Positions 1 to 64,000 of a stretch of DNA of 64,000 nt are shown here, in pieces. The notes beneath the pieces are model-generated. The model was not told the origin of the DNA. It made no database searches and worked only from the letters and a program-made list of their open reading frames with translations. Position 1 is the stretch's first letter; the number at the start of each line of letters is the position of its first letter. A program made the translations under genes and the position numbers. This DNA is from Amoebidium appalachense (lineage: Eukaryota > Protista > Ichthyosporea): assembly GCA_963693365.1 (NCBI GenBank), contig CAVNZM010000003.1:9251019-9315018 (forward strand), written 5' to 3'.

Positions 1-1589
1 GAGTGAACTGTTCCCTTGCCGGAGTTTGTTGTGTACGTCTGCACTGTTGAAATATGTGAAGTATTCGCGCACTGCTTTTGGCATGGGCACTTGTGTTCCG
101 TTTTTTGTGATACGGGGAGCTCCTGCTTCCGTACTTCCTGCCGTCGTTACTACACGCATGCTGAAATCCTTATCCTGCCAACGTATGGCCCGTACTTCAA
201 CCCCTCCCTCCGTAGTGGTAGTGGCTGCTGCCCATTTCCCCCTTCCCTCCTCGCACTTCGCTGCCAAAAGATTGGTTGGGAAGTTTTTATGTGCCGTTTT
301 CACGTTTAGAACTGAGTAAAAGTTGAAGCGCTCTTTAAGGTTGACCGCGCATTTGACCGACCCAAACCAAGAGTCCGCGACAACTGTGCTTGGGTGGACA
401 CCGTTTTGTGCTTTCCAAGGGGAAACAAGACGCAAAGTGACCGCTGTGCCCGCGCCGAGTTCCTTCTGGTACGGTTTCTCTTGCATCCGCTCCTTTCCTT
501 CCTGCAATTCGAAGTTGATCATGATTCCCGTTTTCGAATCGTGCAAGACTTTGAACTCTTGCCCGAGAGGGTGGGGTTTTCGCTTGACATACGTGAGGCA
601 AAAACAATCGTCGGAATAGAGGGGAACCATCGACTCGTCCCCTGTAAAAATATCACCCGGTTCGATTGCAAAAATGAAGGTCTCCTGAAGTTCAATCATG
701 AAACCACGAATCTCTCCGGCTGGGTCGTCCGGAGCGTAGTTGCTGGTGTCTGACACAACAAGGAACCGGCGTATCTCATCAAAACGGGTGTGTGTCATGA
801 AACGTCCAAGATTGTGGGCTGGAAAGATCGAGTGGGTGTTTTCGGTGTTCCAATACTTCCTTCGTTCACCGGGTTGGGGCCGACACACCATATAAAGCCA
901 CACTCCCAGCCATGCATAAAACTCTCCCTCGGTCACATCGGTCCATTTCTTTCCCGTTTTCGCTTTTTCTGCTCGTGCCCGTTCATTTGTGAGTTTTAGG
1001 ATTGTTGTTTTAGTGAAGCTTCGCGGCCACCAGTGAAGAAAAAGAGCGAAAGCACTACCGTCGTTGAGTATTTCAGTGTTCGTAAGTTTGGGTTTCCGAA
1101 CCGGTTGTTGTTCACGTTTGTCTGCCAGTGGTGCCCCCGTGTTCAGCTCCCACTTGTACTCACTTTTGGGGTCATACTCGACTTCTTCCTCTTCTTCGGC
1201 CCTTTCCCCGTTCTCTCTCTCTCTTTCCCTGTTCCTTTCTTCTTCCACTTCGCTCAACTCATCGTCGTCCTCACTCATATCGGCACTGTTTCCTTCCTCT
1301 AGATCTCTCCCCTCTATCTCGCTCTCTCCCTCCTCACTTCCACTGTCGTCCCCCCTTCAATAGTGTGAATCTCGCTCCGTGGTACTTCTTCTACTTTCCC
1401 GTCGTGGTCTATGTGTACCAACCATTTATTGTTCTTTAATACTTGCATAGTTGTGCCTGTGAGCTGTTTCGTTTCCCATTCTTCACCAAACTGCTCTTTA
1501 CTCCAACGTTCATCATCGTTCCTGACTTTACCATCAAAGATGCATGCAAAAACCCAAACTCTCTGGTCTTTCCTTAAACGCCTAACCAT
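1..1589 (-). CDS. piggyBac-like (DDE_Tnp_1_7) transposase, C-terminus beyond window edge
   Basis: Manual minus-strand translation is open from ~1350 to base 1: ...KLTNERA..WTDVTEGEFYAWLG..YW..GRFMTHTRFDEIRRFL..TGDESMVP..YVKRKPHPLGQEFK..VVADSWFGSV..AVREYFTYFNSADVHNKLR. It has three catalytic-type Asp motifs (DES, DSWF, AD). The N-terminal part (ATG 1589) is joined by one slip in the G6 run at 1350-1355. The main frame is absent from the ORF track because no stop lies inside the window. Confidence 0.9.
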
Positions 1590-3664: not shown

Positions 3665-4573
3665 AGGAGGACGGTTGTGTTTGTTCATGTTGATGTATAG
3701 TATTAATTAATGAGTACAGTGTTATAGTTGTCAGAAATACGGAGTTGTGTCTGAATACAACAATTAAGAGCGCTCACCTTTTGTTGATTTTCACATTTAA
3801 ACATGTGTAATTGCGGGCACTAGGGATAATTATAAAGGTACTCCGGTCTTGATAGGTGTGAGCAGGATGATTTGTACAATGATGAACATAGGACAGGTTC
3901 GTTTGAGCATCGGTACATGTATCGATTATCACTGACAGACACGGGCGTAGTGATAAACAAATAAATCTGCAGCATAAAAACGCTTGTGGAGTGTATGCAT
4001 CCCCTCCCCCCCCCCCCAAAAAAAAAAAAAAAATCCGGCTGCAGCCAAGCAGGGGGTAGGAAGCCCTGCAGGTTACTATGGGTGGCATCCGCCCTGTCTG
4101 TAACATGTCCATACCACCATGCTGAAAGTTGTTGCTGCCAATATAACCGACCAACACACCAATCTATCGTGCTTGCTGTGTAAGTGTTATTGCTGCAGTC
4201 TGTAGCACCATCACTTACACGTCTAGTTGTACCTGACACCAACAAAATCAACGCCAATACATCCGAATGTAATAGGTGCAGCAATTGCACCCGTCAATAC
4301 TACGGTTAGCCGTCGATGTTAAACATTGGCCCAAATAGATGATATCAATATCAATATGCCCTGCACATGTGTTATAGACGTTGATATCGGCGCAACAAAT
4401 ATCGCGAGGGCTTGTGCAAAACACACTAAGGAAAAACAAAAGGGTGGGGGTGGGGGGTGGGGATTGGGGGGTTGGGGGGTTGGGGGGGGGGGGAGGGGGG
4501 GGGGGGGGGGGGGGGGGGGGATCGATACGACGGCCCCTTATACATATGTGTGGTATAAGTGCCTCACGATATG

Positions 4574-4620
<47 letters not shown>

Positions 4621-4710
4621 TATCCACGCGCATCAACAGATGGGGGCCTTATACTAACAGGTGTAGTACATGTGCATTCTCTCTCCCCAACACCACGCCC
4701 ACGCAAAAAC

Positions 4711-7220
4711 ATGAGTACGAAGAACACCAAAGCAAAGGCCCCCCAGCCTCCCATCGGTACTAATGCTAGTAGTGAAACTGCGGGCGGCAGCGGCGGCGGT
4801 AGCGGGCCGTGCAGCGTTTGCCGTGTTCCAAGTAGCCAACTATGTAGCGGGTGCGGGGCACTTTATTACTGCGGCCGACCACACCAACAGCAACACTGGC
4901 CGGCGCACAAACCCACGTGCAAGCTCCTACGATCCCTCGACACATGTTTGGCTGATGTCACACAACGCCTCGGCGCATCGTGCACAGAGAAAGGTGATTT
5001 GGTAACGCAGCCACCATCACGTGAGCGTACGGAGTGCCAAGAGGGGCTTGTAGTGACGGACACGGTTCATAAGGGCAGGGTGGTGCTGGCAGGGAAACCT
5101 TTCAAAAGGGGTGATGTTTGCCTGAGCGAGGCACCCATAGCGCTATTCACCGACACAAGCAGCACTAGTTTTAAGGATCTCGAGCGAGTTTTCGAGCGGA
5201 AGGGGGTGTCGAGGGCGCATTTTCAGGCGGTTCAAGCAGTCGTTGCCGAAACGAAAAATGACCCAACGGGGTTGGTACGGTTGCTGTTCCACGCACTGGA
5301 GTTTGAACTCCTCTCCAATGACCAGCAGGAGCGCACGCTGGCACTGCACTCACCACCCCTCGACCAGCCCGGCTTTGCGCAAACTTTGGACAGAGCGGTA
5401 GATGCCCTCTACGCAAAGCACCCGTCCATCCTACCATTTGATTCGAACACGTGCAAGCGCATGGCACTCGTACTCAAGGCCAATTCCTACTCATGCGGTG
5501 TAGAAGGGAAGTATGTAGCGCTTAACTCCCTCGGGTGCCGCATTTCTCATAGTTGCGAGCCCAACAGTTTTAAGACACATACGGAAGATGGGGAGAATGG
5601 TCGTGCGCCCGGTGCAAGACATTCCCGTAGGGGAAGAGATAACAGTTACGTACCTCTCTCCCGAGCAGCTGCTTTTGCCACGGGACGAAAGGAGGAAAGT
5701 TTTACAGGAGGTGTTTTGCTTCGAATGTGTCTGTAATAGATGTGTGAGGGAGCACGATGATGTGAGGGGCTATGCGTGTCCCGAGTGCAAGAAGGGGACT
5801 GTGTTAGCACCTGTTGGGACCGAAGGTGGGTGCTATGGTTCTATAATCCACCCCCCCACCCACCCCCGGGCCTATTTTCCCTCTTACCTTCTGTCCCTTC
5901 TCACTCGCTCACTCGCTCACTCCCCCCTCCCCCTCCCCCTCTCCCTCTCTGTTTCTCTCACCTCCCTCGTCCTCGATCGCCTTCTCTCACTCTCCGCATT
6001 TTCCCTTTTTTTCACGTGCCCCTCCCCTGCAGCCTTTCTTGCTCTCTCCGCTATATCCCACTTCATTCATGCGCTCCCTCACCCCCCCCCCCCACACACA
6101 CACTATCTAGGAGTGAGAGGGAGAGGGAGAGGGATAGAAAGGGAGACAGAGAGTTTGTCTTACAAATTATAAAAGCACTCACGATGTGCCTATACTACTT
6201 CCGCCTCCTCCCCCCCCCCCCCCCCTCCTTCTCTCCCTGCCCCTGGGTCTCTCTCCTCACCTCCCCCTTGCCCCCCCCCCCCCCCTCCCCCGTTATGCAT
6301 ACTCTTTATTCCTCCAATGGATGATATGCCCCCCCCTCCCCCCTTTCCCCTCCTCCTGCCCAAACACATGGTACCAAACACATGGTACCATACTCACAAG
6401 GCTTACACTTTTTGTGTGCTCTTTTTGCCTATTCGGCATAGTGTTATCATTGTGAATGCGTACTTCCTACTTTGTAATGGATATTTCTGCATCCTCCTCT
6501 CTCTCTCTCTCTCCCCCCCCCCCACCCCCCCTCCCCTCTCCCCTCTCCCCTTCCCCTCCCTCCCCTCCTTTTTCCACCCCTCCCCCCGCCCCCCTCTCCC
6601 TATCCCACCCACTTACTCTACCCCTCTGTTTCTTTCTTTTTCCCTTAACACCTCTTCCTCTCTTTGCTCCACCCCCACCTCCAATGATTCTCCATCATCT
6701 CTATTTTTAATCCCTGTTCTTCCCAATATCTGTTGCCCCTTTCTTTACCATACTCCCATGCCCCCTCTCACCACACACAAGCGTGCGAGCAAGAGACCTG
6801 ATTAAACACATCCTCACCCGTGAACAACACAAACACAGGCAAACAGATGCAAGAGTGGACACACACACACGCGTGCACACAGTCACACACCGACATGCAC
6901 ACGCATGCACACACACACACATGCACACCCTGCCTGCACTTTGCCATAATTCACCACTAACATCTGCACCATTTCCACCCTTATCACTGCTCTCGTACTG
7001 TACCACTGAGTCCTTTATTTCATCTCTGTCCCCCCCCCCCGTGTTCCGCATTCAACCCCCCCCCCCCCCCCCCCCTTTTCTTCAAAATATGCATACTGTT
7101 GTGTGGTTTGCAGGCGGGTGGTGTTGGTCCTTATGAAAGTATACACCATATCTATAGCACATCCACACATCCCCCCCCCCCCCCCCCCCCCCCTCTACAC
7201 TTGCACAGTTACTCTCCCAC

Positions 7221-7256
<36 letters not shown>

Positions 7257-8058
7257 ACACACACACACCACCACCACCACCACAATTATTCTCCCATTAT
7301 CATTACCACGAGAGCACATCCTTCCCTATCCCACCCAACACCATCGTGACCCTCCCCTCCTGACTCCCCCGACCCCTTTCACCCCCCCTCGTTTATAACA
7401 GCATCTAGGTCCCCTTCATCCATTCACTGCTCACAACCACTCCCCCCGTTCTATCCTGCCACCTACATCCCCTTGCCTTTGCATGTGTCCTGCACCATTC
7501 TTCTGATCTTGTATGTGTACTTCGTACCGTGTTCCGCATTCAAACCCCCCCCCCCCCCCCCCCCCCCCCCCATAAGCAACCCTGCTCGTCTTTGATCAAG
7601 ACGGGTTGACCCACCCAAGTTCAGTTGATGCTGCTGTCTGAGTTGGAGCGTCGTATATACGCGGGCTAAGGGGTCGAAACTCAGACGCAATTGATGACTT
7701 GGGCCCTCCCTGAGGATGGGCTCTGCTTATGACGCATACTGTGCGCATGGCTGATGCTGCATACTTGAATGTTTGCCTTTGCATGTGTCCTGCACCATGC
7801 TTCTCATCGTCTATGCGTACTTCGTACTGTGTTCCGCATTCAAACCCCCCCCCCCCCCCCCCCCTCCGTTCTCTCCCCCGAAGGGGGGCACACAAAACCT
7901 CTGAACCTCCAACTAACACAATGCCTCCCTCCTTCCCCCTCCCCCCCCCCCCCCCCCCCCCCTTCCTTTCCCCTTCCCACCCTCCCACCGAGCTTGCTTG
8001 CCTGCCCAATCATCCCTACCCCGACACCGCCCACTATGAACTCCACCAAAACCCCCCC

Positions 8059-11888: not shown

Positions 11889-13394
11889 ATAGGAATTTTT
11901 CTGGTTTCAATAGGGTCTCGAACTTTGGGAGCTCATTTAATACTGTTTGTAGTTGCTAATATCAAGTGTGTATACGTTAATTGCCGTATAAGCCGACTCA
12001 TTTTGTGGCTCAATTCGAAGCTGGGCTTGTCAAAAGAAAAACCCTTTGAAGTACTTATAGCTGCACGTTTTTGTTAACAATCAATGCTGATTTTCCGACG
12101 GCTCGGCCGACTCAATGCTGTGCGAGCACTTGAGTTCATGATCTTCATCTCGTTGTATAACACAATCTTTCAGCCTCCTTACACTCTTTTCTTTTTGTAT
12201 GTAAGTAATAACTCTGCTTATAGCTCAACTCACAACACATCATGACCTCCCGTAATCAACACCGTTTCATCGAGCCGGCTGACAGCAGTAAAGGTTTGAG
12301 TCCTCCCCCCCCCCCCCCCCCCCTTCCCCCCCTCCCCCCCCCCCCCTTTTAGCTTAGAGATGCCCAAAAACCTTTAAGATATAAACATCTATGACACCTC
12401 TGACAACTACACGCTGCACTTGTTGGCTTCAGCGTGCTAGCTAATGAAACTTGCTCCTTCTTGTCGCCATTAAGGTTGATGGGTGTTGTGCCCTCTGGCA
12501 ACCGGTTACCCAATTTTTCTTTTTCTTACAAATCTTCATTTGGCTTGTGCACATGGCTCTCCTCCCCCCCCCCCCCCCCCCCCCCCCCCCTCTTCCCCCC
12601 GGGCTGCATTATACCCTTTATGTGTGGTTTGCGCTCTGCAGTGTTTTCCGGTGTGAATGTGTACTTCGAACTCTGTGGCACATTCAAACCCCCCCCCCCC
12701 CCCCTCCCTTCGCGCCCACCCTTCACCACCACCACCACCACCACCACGTATGTCCGCTCCCTCCTCCTCCTTCACCTCCCCGTATCTCTTTCCCATTAGG
12801 TTGCCCAGCACACACTTGCAAAGCCCGCGCCATGTTGCGACCTCTTAATCTCCTGTCTGCTCTCTTCGCTGCCGGGCCTTTGGTTTTACGGTTGTGTCTT
12901 CTGGTTGTATAGCCGAAGACTTGCCTTCAGGCAGAGTTTTGTGACGACTGGCTTCTCCCCCCTTAACCCTGGTCACTTGTTTGTTTGGTTTAATCTAGAC
13001 GGAGGTGGCGGCGCCCCTGGAATGTGGGGTTGTGGGGCTGGTTGTGTGTGTGTTTGGGATTGGGGGAGGGGGGGAGAGGGGGGGAGGTGATTCCTTTTCT
13101 CTGCAGTTTTTTTGCAGTGGTGGTGGCATGGGGCTTGTAGGGGCAGGGGTGTGGGCTTTTGTGTGTCGGGCTTGTTAAGAGGATGTCGACTTTTCCATGG
13201 GGAGGATATACTAGTAGTTGTACTTGGAGAGGGGGAAGGGGAGGGGGACAAGACCATATTTGAAGGGCAGGGCATTTGCATAATGTGCTATTTGGTTCTT
13301 TCTCCATTTCTTTGTTTCCTTCTTCTCCTTCTTCTTCTTTTTCTACTTTTTTTTTTTTTTTTTTTTTTTTTGGTGGGGGTGGGGGTGTGGGGGG

Positions 13395-14123: not shown

Positions 14124-15965
14124 TTGCCCCCCTCTCCAGCCTGCCCGCTGTCAAATATACCCACGGAGCTACTCGGGTGCATTGTCAGCTGGCTTCCCCT
14201 CACCGACCGATGCTCAGTTTCGGCAACGTGCCACGCCCTCTGCACCGTCGCACGCCGTGTCCATGCAGTCCAGTCACGGTTAATGTTCTGGACGCACGTC
14301 AAAATGATGAGTATTTCGGTGGGGATTCCAGATGGATAAATGTGTTGCCCAGGTTTTGCAATGCGTGGAAAACAGTTATCACGAGCGCGGTTGTGGATGT
14401 CACGGGCACTGGCGGTCACGGTGATGACCAGCAAAGAATTAAAGATCAGGTTGCACAGGCAACGGTCTGTGCCTCAGTTCCTTCGTCTCTGCCAAACCTC
14501 ACGGCAATCACAGTGCGTGTCGTCATCGCCAACACATTCACCGTGGAGCATATTCGTCGCCTGCTGTCACCAATTGTCGCAAAAATAGGCCCTCAGTTGA
14601 GAGAAGTTAAGGTGCACGTGTTTATGCGTGCAATGCATGCGACAGGATGTGGCTCAAGAGGCTGCTCTGGTATTGTCTCTGTGGGATGGGTGCCCTAACC
14701 TTTGTCAGCTTTCGGTTTACGGCCTAGCCTGGCCCGAAACAATATATACCGACGCACATGGCAGCCCTGCGCGATCTCACAATCGCGAGCCCCGGGCAGG
14801 GCAATTTGAAATTGGTTACGGAGATGGTTTTGGGGGCCGCACCAACCATGCGTCAGTTGTATTTGCGCTTTGGCGGCATTTACGGCGAGGGATTGGGGTT
14901 TATTGGCATGGCAGTCAACCTGTGCAAACTGGTTCTTGGCTGCGTCGACATGGCAGACTTGGATGTGTCAGGACTGGCAGCATGCCCCCACCTTCGCAAA
15001 CTAATTGTCAGGGCGGCCCCAGAGCATATTGTCCAAATTCACGGGTTATCAGCACTACCGGCCCTACGTGTTCTCGACATGGAGAAAACTCGCCAGGTTA
15101 TGGGGTCGTGTTTCGGTCTCACCGAGGTTCATGCTTCCTTATTTAATGAACAATACAGACCAGATCAAGACATACCGTTTTTGGGCGCATCAGCAAACAC
15201 GCTTCGCCGGTTGAGTCTTAGGGGTACATGGTTCAACCAGCTACACCAACTCGTACCGATGAGCATCACGAAACTAAGCTCCCTTAGTTTAAGTGCACCG
15301 AGGAATTGTACGGTGCCTAATATAGTGCTTTCCGAGTTTCCTGACCTGCGGGAGCTACAGGTCAGTGGTTACACCACCGCGCTCGGTCCACTGCACCCCA
15401 ACAGCCGCCTGCGTAAGTTACACATAACACAAGTACCCCATCTCGTCACCATTGGTGGTGTTGCACGGAGCCCCATCGAGAAAATTGTGCTGCATAACGC
15501 CATAGGACTTTCTTCTCTCGACCCACTTTCGACGTGCACACGACTGAGGAAAATCGTGCTGATTGGGTGCATTTCCATCACCAGTCTTGACTCCCTGGGG
15601 GGGCTCCCCATCGTGGACATCACCATAGTATATGGCCCAAAGATGCTGACGACGCTGGAGCCACTCTCCACGTGCCGGCGCCTGCGTCGCATTGCAGTGT
15701 CCGGCAGTCCGAGCAACAGTCCGAGGATCACGACGCTGGCTCCCTTGCGCGGTCTCCCGCTTGTACGCGTGGAAGTCAGGGACCTTCGAGGCCTCACAGA
15801 TATCGACTCACTGGCGCAGTGCACAGCCCTAAGCAGTCTGGAGATCAAGGATGTGCCGTGTGTGAGGGATTTGCTGTGTCTGGCGGGCCATCCATCTCTG
15901 TGCTGGTTGGAGGTGAAAGAACAGTGCCCATGGGCCTCACACACCTGCAGCCTTCGGTGAAAGTG
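14124..15965 (+). CDS. F-box + leucine-rich-repeat protein (several frameshifts; possibly a pseudogene)
   Basis: F-box LSNIPTELLGCIVSWLPLTDRCSVSATCHALC. LRRs LSSLDPLSTCTRLRKIVL, LTTLEPLSTCRRLRRIAV, LTDIDSLAQCTALSSLEI. Coding phase moves across ORFs 14124, 13961, 14628 and 14758. Start codon and last exon uncertain. Confidence 0.75.
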
Positions 15966-18184: not shown

Positions 18185-24658
<6,474 letters not shown>

Positions 24659-25339: not shown

Positions 25340-25857
25340 TGGTGGTGGGGGGGGGGGGGGGGGGGGGGGTTGCAGTCAGTGATGGCAAATCGACTTTCGT
25401 TTCCCAGCTAATTGCAATCGTAGTCATTACGTATGAATAACTAAATAGCATTTCTTTTTTTTGTTTTTCTTTTTTCTTTTTCTTTTCTCCTTTTTTTTTT
25501 TTTGTGTGTGTGTGTGTGTGTGTGCTGCTTATAATCAAGCTTGTGGTCATAGGAAAATGTTTCACTATGGGAACATCAAAGGGCATGCGCTGCGCAGGGG
25601 CAGGCACTGGGTTAGATGTTGGCGGCATGCATCTTTTGGGACGAACGGCGGCGGCACGCGGGCGGGGGGGGGGGGGGGGGGGGGGGGACGGCCCTGTGAA
25701 TTCTCGATCACGGCAAAACGAACCAAATATAAAGCACTGTACACGTGCACCGGTGTAAATCTTTTTAATATCAGATATTGGATCTGATCTATTTGTATGT
25801 ACGTGGGTGGGTTGGTGTGTGGGTTGGGGGAGGGGAGGGGAGGGGGGGGGGGGGGGG

Positions 25858-25955
25858 AATTCGAATATTAAGGAGGGGGGGGGGGGGGGGGATTCGAATA
25901 TTAAGGGGGGGGGGGGGAATTCGAATATCAAGGGGGGGGGGATTCGAATATTAAG
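25858..25955. repeat. minisatellite: ATTCGAATAT(T/C)AA x4 separated by G-runs
   Basis: Four copies at ~25859, 25891, 25919 and 25942, directly visible in the sequence. Confidence 0.85.
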
Positions 25956-26280
25956 GGGGGGGGGGGGGGGGGGGGGGGGAGGGCGGGTACCGGTATGGAG
26001 AGGTTGGGGGGAGGAGGGATCAGGCAGGGCCCCGGGGGAGAGGGGGGAGGGGGGGGGGGGGGGGGGGGGGATTGTTGTTGTTGACCGGTCCATATCAGAT
26101 TTGGCCGGAAAACCAGATTCCAACCCCCTGGTAAGATATATAGCCGGTGCGGAGGTAAACTTCTGTCTCAAACATTACGATCTATGGGTGGGATGCACAC
26201 TTGCCGATTCCAATACGGCACACACGTGTAGTGGGACATGTTTAATTTGGTTTCACATTTTTGGGCAAAAAAAAACAGCA

Positions 26281-27670: not shown

Positions 27671-36573
<8,903 letters not shown>

Positions 36574-37639: not shown

Positions 37640-37872
37640 CAAAGTGTCTTGGTTGACTTCAAAGTGTCTTGGTTGACTTGCAAGGGCGGTTGAACCAGTT
37701 TCGTAACACCAGGTATTTACATTCGTATGGGGTTTGTCATCGCATGCGAAACACCATTAGGGGGTGTGTGCAAAGTGTCTTGGTTGACTTGCAAGACCAG
37801 TTTCGTAACACCAGGTATTTACATTCGTATGGGGTTTGTCATAGCATGCGAAACACCATTAGGGGGTGTGTG
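37640..37872. repeat. tandem ~105-bp duplication plus 21-bp partial unit
   Basis: CAAAGTGTCTTGGTTGACTT occurs three times. ACCAGTTTCGTAACACCAGG...CATTAGGGGGTGTGTG occurs twice. Confidence 0.9.
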
Positions 37873-38380: not shown

Positions 38381-40141
38381 ATGAATCAACAAAACGCAGA
38401 CGTAAAAATGGAGTTGGAAGACACCCCAGAAGCGCTAGAGATATGTTTGCTGCACCAACGCTTTGTTGACTGGTATAACGGTGTGTGCGAGAACACTGAT
38501 GAGGTCTTTGTGGACTGGTTTGAGAAAAGCATGACACCAGAGTTCTGTTTTGTAGGGCCCAGGTACTGTATTTCTTCCCTGCCCCCTCTCCCCCCCCCGG
38601 CCCCATCCCCCCTGGTTTCCCAGCCCTGCCCCCTCCCCCCTTCCCCCCCCTTCCCCGTTTTCCCTCACACACAAAAAACCACCTGCAGAAACTGAGCTGC
38701 TCAGACATCAAGGATGACTTGTACCCCACTACCCCTCCGAGGCTTGACTCCATCATTTTTACTCGCTGCCTGTGTCCGTCCGTTAGCTGTATTACTTCGT
38801 GCTCTTGGGTTTGTTTGTGGCCTTAGCTGCATATGCGCGCTCCTCCACGTTAAGGGGTTTTTTTTTTCTTGATCTTCTTTCCTAATTTTGTCTTTAATTT
38901 TGTTGTTCCTAGGCGTTTTTTTTTTATAGATGACTTCTCGTAGTAAGTACGGTGCCCCCCCCCCCCCCCCCCCCCCCCCCGGGAAAATACCTTAACAAAC
39001 ACCCAGGGGGGGGGGGGGGGGGAGTGGGGCAGGGGTTGGAGGACTTTCATTCTAGCACCTTACAGTACATCCCTGGCATTCTTCCCGACCCTTCCCTGAG
39101 CCCATCAACACTAACACAGCCCCCCCCCCCCCCCCCCAGCCCCCCTTCCTTCCCCCCCCCCCCCCCCCCCGAGTCTCCCACACTTCCTAAACCGCCAGCT
39201 TTCACTGCAGTGCTTTTCACCCAACCAGTTTACATATGAACTTCCCATCATTTTGCATTTTTCTCTATCATGTTTCCCACAGATACGTATTTTTGCTGAT
39301 GTACCTAGCGAACTCGGCCTTCTCATATTCTAATTTTGGGGTTTCTGGTGATTGCAGTTTGTTACCCCCATTCTCCCCCCCCCCCCCCCCCTCCCTCCCC
39401 CCTCCCCCCCCCCCCCCCCCCCCCCCCCCCGCCCCCGATGTTGCATACTTGAATGTTTGCCTTTGCATGTGTCATACAATGTGCTTCTCATCGTGTATGT
39501 GTACCTCGTACCGTGTTCCGCATATAACCCCCCCCCCCCCCCCCCTCCTCCCCCGCGGAGGACTTCGTGTCCCTCCGAGGATGAACTCTGTTGATCATGC
39601 ACATTGCCGTTTTCGCTCTGCATTGTGTTGTCATACATCTGCACTTCGCACTCTATAGCACATTCTACCCCATTCCCCCAACCCCCTCTCATATTTTCCC
39701 CTCTGATTACGAATTCTGTGGCCTTCGGGACTTAATTCTTTTCAGCTGGTGTAGTATGTTAGCCAGGGAAGTATCGACTTAGGTATCGACGGGGGAGCTT
39801 CCTAGAAGCCCCGTCTCCTGAGTTCCTATCTATATTTTTCTTGCTTCTGCTTACTGCTGCAACTTTAACCCCCGGCCTTTCCCACTGCCCTTGCCTGCAT
39901 AAGCAACCCTGCTCGTCTCTGATCAAGACGGGTGACCTACTCATGTTCAAGTGAAACAGTATCTGAGTTGGGTTTCGTTAACGAGGGGAATAGGTCGAAA
40001 CTCGGGTACTGTGGATGACGTGGGCCCCCCCTGAGGATGGGCTCTGCTTATTATGCATACTCTTTATGTATGGCTTGCATTCTGCATCGTGTTATCCGTT
40101 TGTTCTTGTGTACTTCGTACTTTTTGACGCATTCAAACCCC

Positions 40142-40172
<31 letters not shown>

Positions 40173-41714
40173 AATAAAAAAAATAAAAAAATAAGCATAC
40201 TCTGTGTGTGTTGCAATCAGCGCTGTGCTGTCGGTCATGAATGTGTGCTTTAGAGCTTAGCATATCCCCCCCCCCCGGCCTTTCCCACTGCCCTTGCCTG
40301 CATAAGCAACCCTGCTCGTCTCTGATCAAGACGGGTGACCTACTCATGTTCAAGTGAAACAGTATCTGAGTTGGGTTTCGTTAACGAGGGGAATAGGTCG
40401 AAACTCGGGTACTGTGGATGACGTGGGCCCCCCCTGAGGATGGGCTCTGCTTATTATGCATACTCTTTATGTATGGCTTGCATTCTGCATCGTGTTATCC
40501 GTTTGTTCTTGTGTACTTCGTACTCTTTGACGCATTCAAACCCCCCCCCCCCCCCCCTCCCCCCAAAAGACACGTGGACTCACATATTGCTGTTGAAACA
40601 AAATATGGGTTTGGAACCATGCACGAGAGGTTAAAGATTCGAAACCCATGCTTTTGTGGAGGCATAGGAACCCCCCTGATGATGGGCTCTGTTCACGTGT
40701 CTTCTGCCTACTGCACGCTTCTCATTTTTGCGGTGTTTTTGTTGTTGCTCTTTGTTGTCTCCTCCATATTTCCAACCCTCTAACACATACATCACCCCTC
40801 CCCCTCCCCCTCCCCCGGGTACTGTGGATGACGTGGCCCCCCCTGAGGATGGGCTCTGCTTATTATGCATACTCTTTATGTATGGCTTGCATTCTGCATC
40901 GTGTTATCCGTTTGTTCTTGTGTACTTCGTACTTTTTGACGCATTCAACCCCCCCCCCCCCCCCCCAGCTGTTGGGGGGCGTAAGATGGGTTCTTTATAC
41001 AGTGTCTCTTTCCCTTCAGGTCCTTTATCTCTTTTTTTACGTTTCTCCAGTCCTGTATGTACACAGCTTTGCTTCTTTTTATAGCAACTTTCTACCCTCG
41101 AACGTGCACCCCCCTCCCCCCCCCCCCCTATAGACACACACAGAAACCGACACAAGAGCAATATGTGATCGAGAAATTGAATTCTGGGTTTTGCAGTGGC
41201 AAAGTCCAAGAGAGATCACATCTTCTGGGGCAGCTTCGTGGGGCACACGGCAAATTCAGGCATTTGGCCGAGTTCAACATCATTATTAGGAATGTGGTGA
41301 CGCGGGTGAGGGATGGGAACATCAGCGTGGCTACGTATGAGGAGTGGCAGACAGGGTGGGTATATGGGGTTTTTGTCCTGGTTAAAGTGTGGCCGAAATT
41401 GTGGTTTGGTGGGGGTTTATGAAACAAAGCGGTTTCTCCGAGTAACGGCTAGGAAAAGTTTGGGGGTTCTTCAGCTACGCAAGGGGTGATGGGGAGGGAG
41501 ACATGGGGGGGGGATGGGCCCGGGTTGGAGGGTGGGTGTATGTGTGTTTTTTGGGAGGGGGGCTTGGCAGTAGTAGGATATAGGGTAGTCATTTAGAAGG
41601 GAGATGGTAGGGGCAGAGAACGGGAGTGGGGTGTTTTAAGGCCAGAGGAAGGCCGGAGAACCATCCCCCCCCCCCCCCCCCCCCCCCCCTCCTCTTTTGC
41701 TTAGACACACACAT

Positions 41715-44569: not shown

Positions 44570-60270
<15,701 letters not shown>

Positions 60271-61516: not shown

Positions 61517-62981
61517 GATTTAGGCTATTCAAGGCTTATTTCAAGCCCTGAATTATGGTCAGGCTTTTAATTGGTCGCCGCCATTTGTCCAATTGGCAAG
61601 GCTCTTCGTACAGCAGGGTGCGAAACGGAATGGAGAAGTGGAGGGGGTTGATGTTGTTGTTCTTGTTGTATCTATTTGTTAAGGATTCGCAAGTATAAAT
61701 ACGCTACCGCACATCAGGTGTTAATTCACTTCTGTCATGGTATATACATAACCGCCAATTCTCGTCTCGTGTACATCATGCGCAGCGCATTTGTCATGAA
61801 CATTCCTGAGTGAACGATTCCTCCCCCGGCCGGCCCGTGGCCGGCTCCCGGGCGGCGGGCCACAGACCGCGGTATCATTGGCGATATCCTGTAAGCACAA
61901 TCGTCGTTAACGATTTTTTTTCCAACAGTTGTATATATGTAGTGCTTTTTTCTTTTTGTTTGTTATAAAACAAATTAGTGCTACTTCTTTTTTTTTTTTT
62001 TTGGATTCGCTGGTCGTATTTTTCACCTATCCAATGTACACAACAGAGGGCGCATATAGGCTATAGCACCGTAACAGTTCACGTACGTTCAGGGTGTGAA
62101 ATTGAGCATCACTTGACTTTAAGGACAAAATTTGTCGACCTCGACAGAACGTCCAAACGCCTAATGCCTGAAGCCCTTTCGAAAAAACGCCTTTGCAGAA
62201 AAGCTTGACAGTAGCTCTTATTTTTCCAGGCCGACAATACTTTCCCTCCGAAGTGACTGATCACGGTGCCAACTCATGCGCTTGACTCGCCAGAGTCGGC
62301 TTGGTCATAACGGTGGCTCAGGCCTCTGTCGTACGTGGCTAGTAGGAAGGGCGATGCAGTGTAGTCAAAACATCCGAGTTTGACTTTCGCTTCTAGGCGA
62401 ATGCAGCTTCGAAGATGGTGCCCTCAAACACGACTTTGAAACTCACAAGCAGGCCCACCCCGAGTGGTACTGGCAGCCAGCTACGGGTACAAACCCAATA
62501 ATGTAGGTGGCCCTCCAATTTAGCAGTTTTTCACGTTATGTATGCTGTCTTATGCAAGTGTGTGTCTCCGAGTCCCCTTAAATTTACAACAATATTCAGA
62601 AGTTCAGGACATACAGTTTGAGGTCCCTGAAACCCTTTTTTCGTTGTGGTTTAATTCGTAATTTAGCTTGGAGAACCACTATTTTACGATACAGGCCACA
62701 GTAAGTTCAAAGACAGCTTTGTGCCACAACCTTCAGTTCAAGTTGGGTAACAGTTGGCTAAATATTGCTCGTTGATGTGCATTTTCGTTGATGTGTATCA
62801 CAACATGATGTTTAATAAGTAACAACTAGTTGGTAAGTTTAGTAACAACTAGTTGCCGTGCACGATGCTGGTGCGTGCACAACTATTTTTTATGTGGCTT
62901 TGTTTTGAATGGTGCAAAAATGACGCATAAACATTACCAAACTACGTGTTCTGACCTTGCGCATTTTTCCTACCCACGCAG

Positions 62982-64000
62982 CGCATTTTTCCAGCGCATC
63001 TTCTACAACCCCTTCTACTACGTGCGCCGTGTGCAGGACAACTTTGGCTGGCAGTTCCTCGTTCTGCTCATATCGGCCTACTTCTGCATTAAGGGCTACC
63101 TGTACCGGGGCTCGTCAACACCAGCCAGCTGCCCATGTTTGTCAAAAAAATGGGTGTGGACGCACAGGCGTACCAAACTTTCGGCAGTGTTGCCTTTATG
63201 CCCATGACTCTCAAACCACCGATGGGCATGTTGTCTGACATTGTCCCCATTGCCGGCTACTTCAAGAAGTGGTGGATTTTCATTGCCTCCCTCGCGGGGG
63301 GCATTTCCATTCCTCTGATTGGTGCCATTGATTTCGGTGCGGATGCAGGCGTGGTTGTTGCGATGATGTATTTCCTCACTATGTGGGAGGTAGCCATGGT
63401 CGATCTTCTAATAGAGGGCCGCTATGCCGCCGTGATGGTGGCCCATCCCGAGACATCCTCCGACGTACTTACGTGGGTTTGAGCCAATTTCTATCTCGGC
63501 CAGCTGGCGGTTACATGGGTCGTGGGCCCACTGGGCGACAAGTACTCGGAGACCAGAAACGACTGGTACATTAAGGGCATGTTCTTTGTTTCTTTCCCCT
63601 TTGCCATCCAGATCTGCGTGCCTCTGCTACTCAACTGTCTGGGCGAGACGCCGCTTCCTCCCCACCAGCACGGTATCCAGGTGGAGAAGTGGAAGAAGCA
63701 CATCAAGGTGTTCCAACTGGCCATCATCATGGGTGTCGGCGCTGCCGGCCTTACCATTATCTCATTGGTCAACAACAATTATTGGCGCCCGACGCTTGCT
63801 GCAAAGTCCCCGTATCTCGCGCAAATCGTTGTATTTGTGTACGCGGTGGCCACGTCGTTGCTTGTCATTGTTTGCAGCTTCTACATGCTCCCTAAAACGG
63901 TGGCCAAGGCACACCTATACATGTTCCTCGCGGCCGCTACATACATCGATGTTAAGGGTGTCATGGACATTTTCTACACCGGTGGCCCCAAGTGCATCCC
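62982..64000 (+). CDS. BT1-family folate/biopterin transporter (MFS), partial
   Basis: AYFCIKG..QLPMF..YQTFGSVAFMPMTLKPPMGMLSDIVPIAGYFKKWW..EVAMVDLLIEGRYA..SDVLTWV, then further hydrophobic segments to the window end. One slip at the G-run ~63107 and an in-frame TGA at 63480. Confidence 0.85.

Follow-up and report, generated by a model that had tools for sequence, protein, structure and literature searches.

What are the repeats that stack between C-runs at positions 39437-40948 of the DNA considered here, a 64,000-nt stretch of contig CAVNZM010000003.1 (positions 9,251,019 to 9,315,018 of the forward strand; hereafter the window)? A preliminary description had taken them for retroposons with a fixed 3' end and had pointed to Penelope-like elements (PLEs) of the Naiad/Chlamys clade. 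Both the retroposon behavior and the pointer were supported, and were strengthened by a shared predicted RNA fold that the description had missed. These poly(C)-associated repeats, with fixed 3' and ragged 5' ends, are probably 3' ends of Naiad/Chlamys-clade PLEs, or non-autonomous derivatives of them, that carry a predicted hammerhead ribozyme with an opened core. As a poly(C)-targeting retroposon the system is likely of a known kind, and (C)n targeting is not new; the new element here is the predicted fold, a core-opened, non-circular hammerhead.

Copies of families A, B and C were collected by self-BLAST within the window. The three proposed families proved real: six A copies with a mutual BLAST identity of 92-100% (the lower values being due to a single 10-nt duplication in A1), four B copies together with a B tail of 15 nt (7041-7055, plus strand, between C11 and C20), and two C copies that are 72% alike. 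Families D, E, G and H and many worn copies were present in addition. The A and B copies shared the 3' end ...CATTCAAA (CATATAA in B3) followed by a C-run and differed in their 5' ends, in agreement with the fixed end and variable 5' truncation described before. A C-run of at least 10 nt lay within 3 nt of the 3' end in 14/16 curated copies, well above the background of 0.48%, and at the 5' end in 7/16 (background 0.44%). A C content of at least 14/20 nt was found in the 3' flank of all 16 copies and in the 5' flank of 11 (background 1.9%); the statement that copies start right after a C-run was accordingly kept for most copies and dropped for A2, B2 and B4. Truncation was one-sided (5'), and the copies had a single orientation relative to the C strand. 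Target site duplications (TSDs) were not discernible. Terminal inverted repeats were absent, as had been stated: when the two ends of A1 and of A2 were compared in inverted orientation, no match exceeded 9/15. Poly(A) was likewise never found directly at the element end, although an A-run does lie behind the 3' C-run in A1 and A2. The 3' junction itself varied, with ACA inserted in A1 and one A fewer in A4.

A profile was made from seven window copies and run on the window and on 10 shuffles. Matches at E<=1 numbered 34 in the window and 0-1 in the shuffles. Among matches reaching the 3' part, 23/30 were followed by at least seven C's (background 7%) and none by at least seven G's; for the worn matches the count was 9/14. 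The superfamily occupies at least 7.8% of the window.

BLAST homology between A and B was limited to ~170 nt, about the extent of a predicted ribozyme domain, part of which is shared by C and G. All nucleotides of the hammerhead core occur in the stretch common to A, B and C, where they are arranged as cut site, GAAA and CUGANGA, a non-circular order. These core letters were invariant across A, B, C1 and C2 (GAAA also in G), despite a likeness of only 66% between A and C; position 11.1 was U in C1 and in family G. The domain was modeled on A2 (39899-40051, plus strand). The four nested helices are a closing helix (39899-39909/40039-40051), a hairpin (39912-39932), a helix joining stems I and II (39940-39949/40012-40024) and stem III (39957-39968/40000-40011). 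Stem II (39934-39939/39991-39996) is separated from the hairpin by U39933, and is accompanied by stem I (39970-39972/40028-40030). By analogy with hammerhead numbering, the predicted cleavage triplet is GUU (39967-39969), with the cut between 39969 and 39970 and 168 nt from the 3' end; the core words are GAAA (G12-A15.1, 39997-40000) and CUGANGA (40031-40037). Since the stem II partner lies upstream, the predicted core has its break between A9 and G10.1.

A descriptor covering all six hammerhead block orders was run on the window and on 30 shuffles. Six matches were obtained, all of them in SGC order, in A or B and on the C-ending strand, and the shuffles gave 0.1 SGC matches each, none with a long stem III. 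The canonical orders CGS, GSC and SCG gave no match in the window, and a search of the window with Rfam gave no hammerhead, no match at gathering score and eight weak matches judged to be chance. A split-core descriptor, in which the length of the helix joining stems I and II overlaps stem III for A (the true length being 6+4 bp), matched 6/6 full A/B domains, 0.02 per shuffled window (100 shuffles) and 0/3000 domain shuffles each for A and B. It also matched 0/54 unrelated loci holding two core words. These were 30 metagenome and 24 prokaryote genome loci recovered with a relaxed two-word core motif (viral loci, 0); they were rejected as relatives, being bacterial-coding-like, with the fold in 0/54 and a best profile E of 0.15. 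The 30-nt A/B core itself had no match in viral contigs and none in metagenome contigs.

Pairing was then compared between copies. From A to B, 8/11 changed pairs remained paired (3.0 expected), four of the changes being two-sided. Over six distinct rows, 83% of cells paired and 11/47 pairs changed on both sides; these values were reached by 0-1/500 shuffles, and slid controls gave 34-47%. Families A and B are young and intact and differ by compensatory changes. Fifteen common variants on the domain were taken from contigs of public sequencing runs. Four keep a pair and three break it unless the partner changes, as it does, in the manner of B, for one of the three; the other eight are unpaired or core, with two core changes at ~2% of depth or less. 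When B was folded for minimum energy, the four nested helices all formed unprompted (z -2.3). The core was also read as a canonical ribozyme, as a type II or hepatitis delta virus-like one, and as a tRNA-derived short interspersed element (SINE); these readings were rejected because stem pairing failed (by eye, and by descriptor for the canonical orders).

Type-SGC (HRIMA-1) and type-CSG hammerheads have been obtained from metatranscriptomes and metagenomes and shown to cleave (PMC10085705). None of the SGC or CSG ribozymes there comes from the genome of a known organism, type CSG is represented by two metagenomic sequences only, and CUGANGA and its stem II strand are assumed to be inseparable. 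The domain resembles both types in having all core letters in a non-circular order, two pseudoknots and a helix joining stems I and II. It differs from them in that CUGANGA and the stem II strand are predicted to be parted and bridged by the closing helix plus hairpin, and in that genomic repeats with a predicted ribozyme only are concerned. The repeats might instead hold an ordinary contiguous type-SGC ribozyme with a 2-bp stem II formed from GG after CUGANGAU, or a dead ribozyme serving as a protein-binding handle. The descriptor does match all six domains with a stem II of 2 bp, and no copy starts at the predicted cut. However, the contiguous strand after CUGAGGAU gives only those 2 bp, whereas the upstream strand gives 5-6 bp with a two-sided change between A and B; the GG is engaged in the closing helix; and in Naiad_Amil, read by eye in the available sequence, C11.1 has a possible pairing partner in the upstream strand and none in the letters that follow CUGAUGA. 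We consider both forms of this explanation unlikely. The predicted split-core fold would add a seventh wiring to the six block orders thought possible, because an extra junction opens its core and closes it again. We could not find this block order with an opened core in print, and self-cutting by it is a prediction. A literature search that left most subscription papers outside found no published link between non-circular hammerheads and PLEs and no report of poly-C non-autonomous PLEs; the accessible passages of PMC13725137 and bioRxiv 10.64898/2026.07.22.740005 contain no such hammerhead link either.

The features of the ends point to Chlamys. Many Chlamys elements insert at (CA)n and (C)n (PMC8557442), with a (C)n preference in 13/49 families (File S1), and non-autonomous head-to-tail copies such as MRC1 are known. 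C-run targeting, together with non-autonomous stacks, is thus already published for Chlamys, and a claim of novelty for it is not supported. Among the (C)n-preferring Chlamys 3' ends available, 8/12 end in AA(C)5-6 and 11/12 in A plus 4-6 C's. The repeats share with Chlamys the (C)n target, an AA(C)n 3' end like CATTCAAA(C)n, 5' truncation, head-to-tail copies, the lack of a discernible TSD and short non-autonomous forms. They differ in that reverse transcriptase (RT) and endonuclease (EN) are seen in Chlamys and not in this window. As the preliminary description had noted, no RT was visible: among the 150 richest of 234 non-low-complexity open reading frames (ORFs; 615 of at least 60 aa in the window), none had an RT or GIY-YIG Pfam match, and translations upstream of A2 and B2 held only short or low-complexity frames.

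The features of the RNA point to Naiad. Naiads are reported as metazoan elements that prefer (TA)n and lack canonical hammerheads (PMC8557442), and two octopus Naiad 3' ends in the supplement hold the core words in the same order, flagged 'HHR_half_core' or unflagged. The last 300-400 nt of the available Naiad 3' ends were read by eye, with names inferred from the File S1 entry order. An SGC or split-core form was seen in 6/20 (Amil, Bfor, Obim, Ovul, 2_Movir and, with a weak stem II, Esco), an intact CSG fold in 4/20 (Smim, Hpol, 2_Nbra and 3_Nbra) and nothing clear in 10/20. The likeness to the repeats lies in the same order of blocks and, where visible, in an upstream strand for stem II and a helix joining stems I and II close to the 3' end; Hpol also has the GUU triplet of A2. 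In contrast to the metazoan hosts and (TA)n bias of Naiads, the repeats have a (C)n bias and an apparently non-animal host. In them, a target like that of Chlamys is paired with an RNA like that of Naiads, in a host that is probably not an animal. The presence of a BT1-family gene in the window argues against an animal host, given the distribution of that family.

SINE-like pieces, or 3' fragments of a long interspersed element (LINE), moved by a microsatellite-specific non-LTR (long terminal repeat) element would also explain a fixed 3' end with 5' truncation, which suits any element using target-primed reverse transcription, and no RT was at hand to speak against it; the fold would then be borrowed or coincidental. 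Against this stand an element end without poly(A), a fold and position that match Naiad ends, a (C)n preference and AA(C)n end that match Chlamys, and the lack of an Rfam match, tRNA or other family. Such an origin appears very unlikely.

The head-to-tail stacking reported for 39437-40948 was confirmed as seven pieces of at least four families with C-rich spacers between them, all on the plus strand. In order, these are B3, a 3' fragment of B ending in CATATAA and then C18 (39437-39527; self-BLAST); H1, a worn 3' fragment of another family with core U4 changed to C (39553-39667); and A2, the longest A copy of the stack at 445 nt, with the same 5' boundary as A1 (39693-40137). C25 follows at the fixed 3' end of A2 (40138-40162), then an A-rich run (40163-40193) and a worn 3' fragment of the superfamily (40194-40265; nhmmer E 0.014). 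The last three are A3, 5'-truncated at an internal C-run and with a full predicted ribozyme domain (40277-40540); C2, an older copy of family C with the core kept and stems I and II weakened (40565-40793); and A4, a short 3' fragment (40817-40948). Because near-identical A copies flank the older C2, the stack suggests that the same tract was used repeatedly.

C-runs on both flanks point to a pre-existing target, and the runs are likely to be mostly target rather than tail. The preliminary description had proposed that a telomerase-template-like C-tail anneals to G-tract ends. In this form the repeats would derive from an EN-independent PLE whose C-tailed RNA anneals to poly(G) 3' ends at G-tract breaks and adds C's, as in Athena and Coprina. 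Longer 3' than 5' runs in 11/16 copies and Chlamys consensus ends that include 4-6 C's agree with it, as does the use of reverse-complement telomeric stretches plus a hammerhead by EN-minus PLEs (PMC8557442). The difference in run length was only marginal, however, and not significant (Wilcoxon p=0.069), and the 3' junction varies in A1 and A4 as given above. The copies are internal, some in likely introns; Athena and Coprina are telomeric, whereas the repeats lie scattered among genes and are flanked by pure C. The (C)n-preferring Chlamys elements encode a nuclease, and in PAc Poseidon, the one PLE examined in vitro, reverse transcription starts at a site non-homologous to the cut DNA (PMC11167929). 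A family match directly precedes only 20/163 C-tracts; the family as maker of most C-tracts is likewise unsupported by this count. With C-runs on both flanks, the marginal p value and the non-homologous start of PAc, the annealing proposal was not borne out, and we regard it as quite unlikely.

For a PLE of the Naiad/Chlamys clade, the likely course of insertion is the following. RNA would be transcribed from a source copy and, as predicted and as the covariation indicates, would fold into a domain ~100-240 nt from its 3' end. This RNA would be bound by a partner protein, such as Chlamys encodes, that has an RT and, at its N terminus, a GIY-YIG nuclease, and that would nick the G strand of poly(C:G). 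Reverse transcription would start at the fixed ...CAUUCAAA from the 3'-OH of the G strand and often drop off early. The second junction would form inside the same tract, so that C's remain on both sides, a fresh C target is left by each insertion and mixed stacks arise; this order of events is suggested by the position of C2, an older copy, between young A copies. Cleavage by the ribozyme would take place after U39969 and would probably be slow or aided by a protein. The cut would not be needed for insertion, because the predicted site is contained in 6/11 A/B copies and no copy begins 19 nt or less from it.

Hammerheads of other PLEs were compared. Retrozyme monomers measure 150 nt and more. 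Non-LTR retrozymes (bioRxiv 10.64898/2026.07.22.740005) are, as these repeats probably are, non-autonomous PLE derivatives; they differ in having canonical type I hammerheads and tandem monomers, where the repeats are 5'-truncated pieces with C-run spacers. PAc also has a hammerhead in a PLE end, and its cleavage is protein-assisted and dispensable for insertion (PMC11167929); it differs in having a canonical type I hammerhead and in cutting AT-rich DNA. Given the priming of PAc and its dispensable hammerhead, annealing of a C-tail is not needed as a model.

Public sequencing runs were searched for the repeats. The A sequence was present in 20 runs of 8 studies, seven rows of which may be the source. 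In contigs on 54030-55120 the summed depth over A was ~1e5-1e6 in X2, X7 and X13 and ~22 in X14 (summed contig depth being no copy number); the neighboring exon in X13 had a depth of ~20. The difference in A depth between X2, X7 and X13 on the one hand and X14 on the other hints at a large, lineage-dependent burst of A. Loose contig ends confirmed the 5' part of A and showed that B extends beyond 34932. An X13 contig covering the exon has 13 unfitting letters where A6 begins, which is a hint only. In X14, A lies in one 776-nt contig (depth ~22) that reaches ~300 nt beyond the known 5' end of A and is a good place to look for the parent of A.

The window is eukaryotic and very rich in homopolymers: runs of at least 10 nt number 123 for C and 60 for G. 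These 183 runs, together with frame breaks in nearby genes that suggest some assembly error, would invite an explanation of the stacks as an artefact of assembly or slippage in a genome rich in poly(C). The occurrence of A in the 20 public runs refutes this explanation, and the covariation of diverged families also speaks against it; we judge it exceedingly improbable.

Several observations weigh against the assignment to the Naiad/Chlamys clade and against the fold. No RT or EN partner was found in the window or in scans of the collection, so the clade assignment draws on features of the RNA and the ends only. By eye, the fold was seen in 0/18 of the Chlamys 3' ends available, and target and ribozyme therefore point to different subclades. 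None of the 20 runs holding A is on record as RNA, and no clean empty allele was found on 54030-55120 among the public-run contigs. Both descriptors and the structure were designed after these sequences had been seen, and the covariation comes from six distinct but related rows. For A, the nested scaffold, with the two pseudoknots left out, has -38.6 kcal/mol and the minimum-energy fold -52.1 (z -1.1); good occupancy is confined to stem III and the outer closing helix, and the hairpin and I-II helix have pair probabilities of only 0.02-0.38. Stem I of A consists of three G-C pairs only, opposite a slippery C6, and C1 and C2 have broken stems, with stem I weak in C.

A poly(C) target would by itself be ordinary. 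The fold, if it cleaves, would widen the rules of the best-studied small ribozyme, in which CUGANGA and stem II are assumed to be inseparable; if true, it would account for the apparent lack of hammerheads in Naiad/Chlamys elements. It also supplies an RNA marker by which PLE fragments lacking an ORF can be classified. That an active hammerhead of this seventh wiring is an overlooked terminal signal shared by Naiad and Chlamys, from animals to an apparently non-animal eukaryote, and here is carried by young, highly abundant poly(C)-targeting elements whose RNA pairs with poly(G) in the manner of a telomerase template and lengthens C-tracts, is a tentative and rather unlikely proposal.

Further copies were mapped across the window (plus strand unless noted). 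A1 (19871-20325, 455 nt) lies between C33 and ACA-C26 and has a full predicted domain. An eyes-absent-like gene has A5 (54090-54439) in a likely intron, where the C25 of this copy lies immediately 5' of a TTCTGCAG acceptor-like site, and A6 (54658-54805), a 3' fragment, in the next likely intron. The upstream exon of this gene matches EYA2 (E 1.5e-4), and the next exon has no match. B1 (7572-7844) starts at the 5' edge of the predicted ribozyme domain, with H17 at 7644, G12 at 7676 and C3 at 7710, and B4 (7473-7544) is a 3' fragment head-to-tail with it. B2 (34660-34932, minus strand) continues 5' beyond 34932, where loose ends match its upstream letters. C1 (9122-9382) is an older family C copy. 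G1 (20409-20560), of a related family, has the cut-site and GAAA blocks; a second G copy lies at 21863-22007, and each of the two is preceded by (CCA)n and an A-run and contains the predicted ribozyme domain in its 5' half. D1 (12601-12688) is a 3' fragment ending in CATTCAAA and then C16, and E1/E2 (22773-23073) are tandem 130-nt 3' fragments with C41 between them.

Other features of the window were recorded. Over the whole window, runs had a polarity: at least 10 C's were followed by at least 8 A's 13 times and by at least 5 (AC) units 12 times, and the reverse order occurred 0 times in each case. Tandem duplications of ~100-110 bp were present at 53602-53829 (separated by C-runs) and 37660-37872, and ~4 short units with TTCGAATATTAA, interleaved with G-runs, at 25839-25987. 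A piggyBac-type transposase frame was open at 1-1320 (minus strand; PF13843, E 1e-40; best relative 42% identical), and no link between it and A, B or C was seen. A MYND-finger gene at 4378-6172 (plus strand; PF01753, E 1e-9) apparently continues in an overlapping frame at 5519-6172, and an intronless leucine-rich-repeat ORF of 410 aa was found at 14728-15957 (plus strand). The reading frame of the BT1-family transporter gene (62920-64000, plus strand) apparently shifts near 63110, and a TGA stands in frame at 63480-63482, a position where W would fit; these breaks may reflect a pseudogene, an assembly error or recoding.

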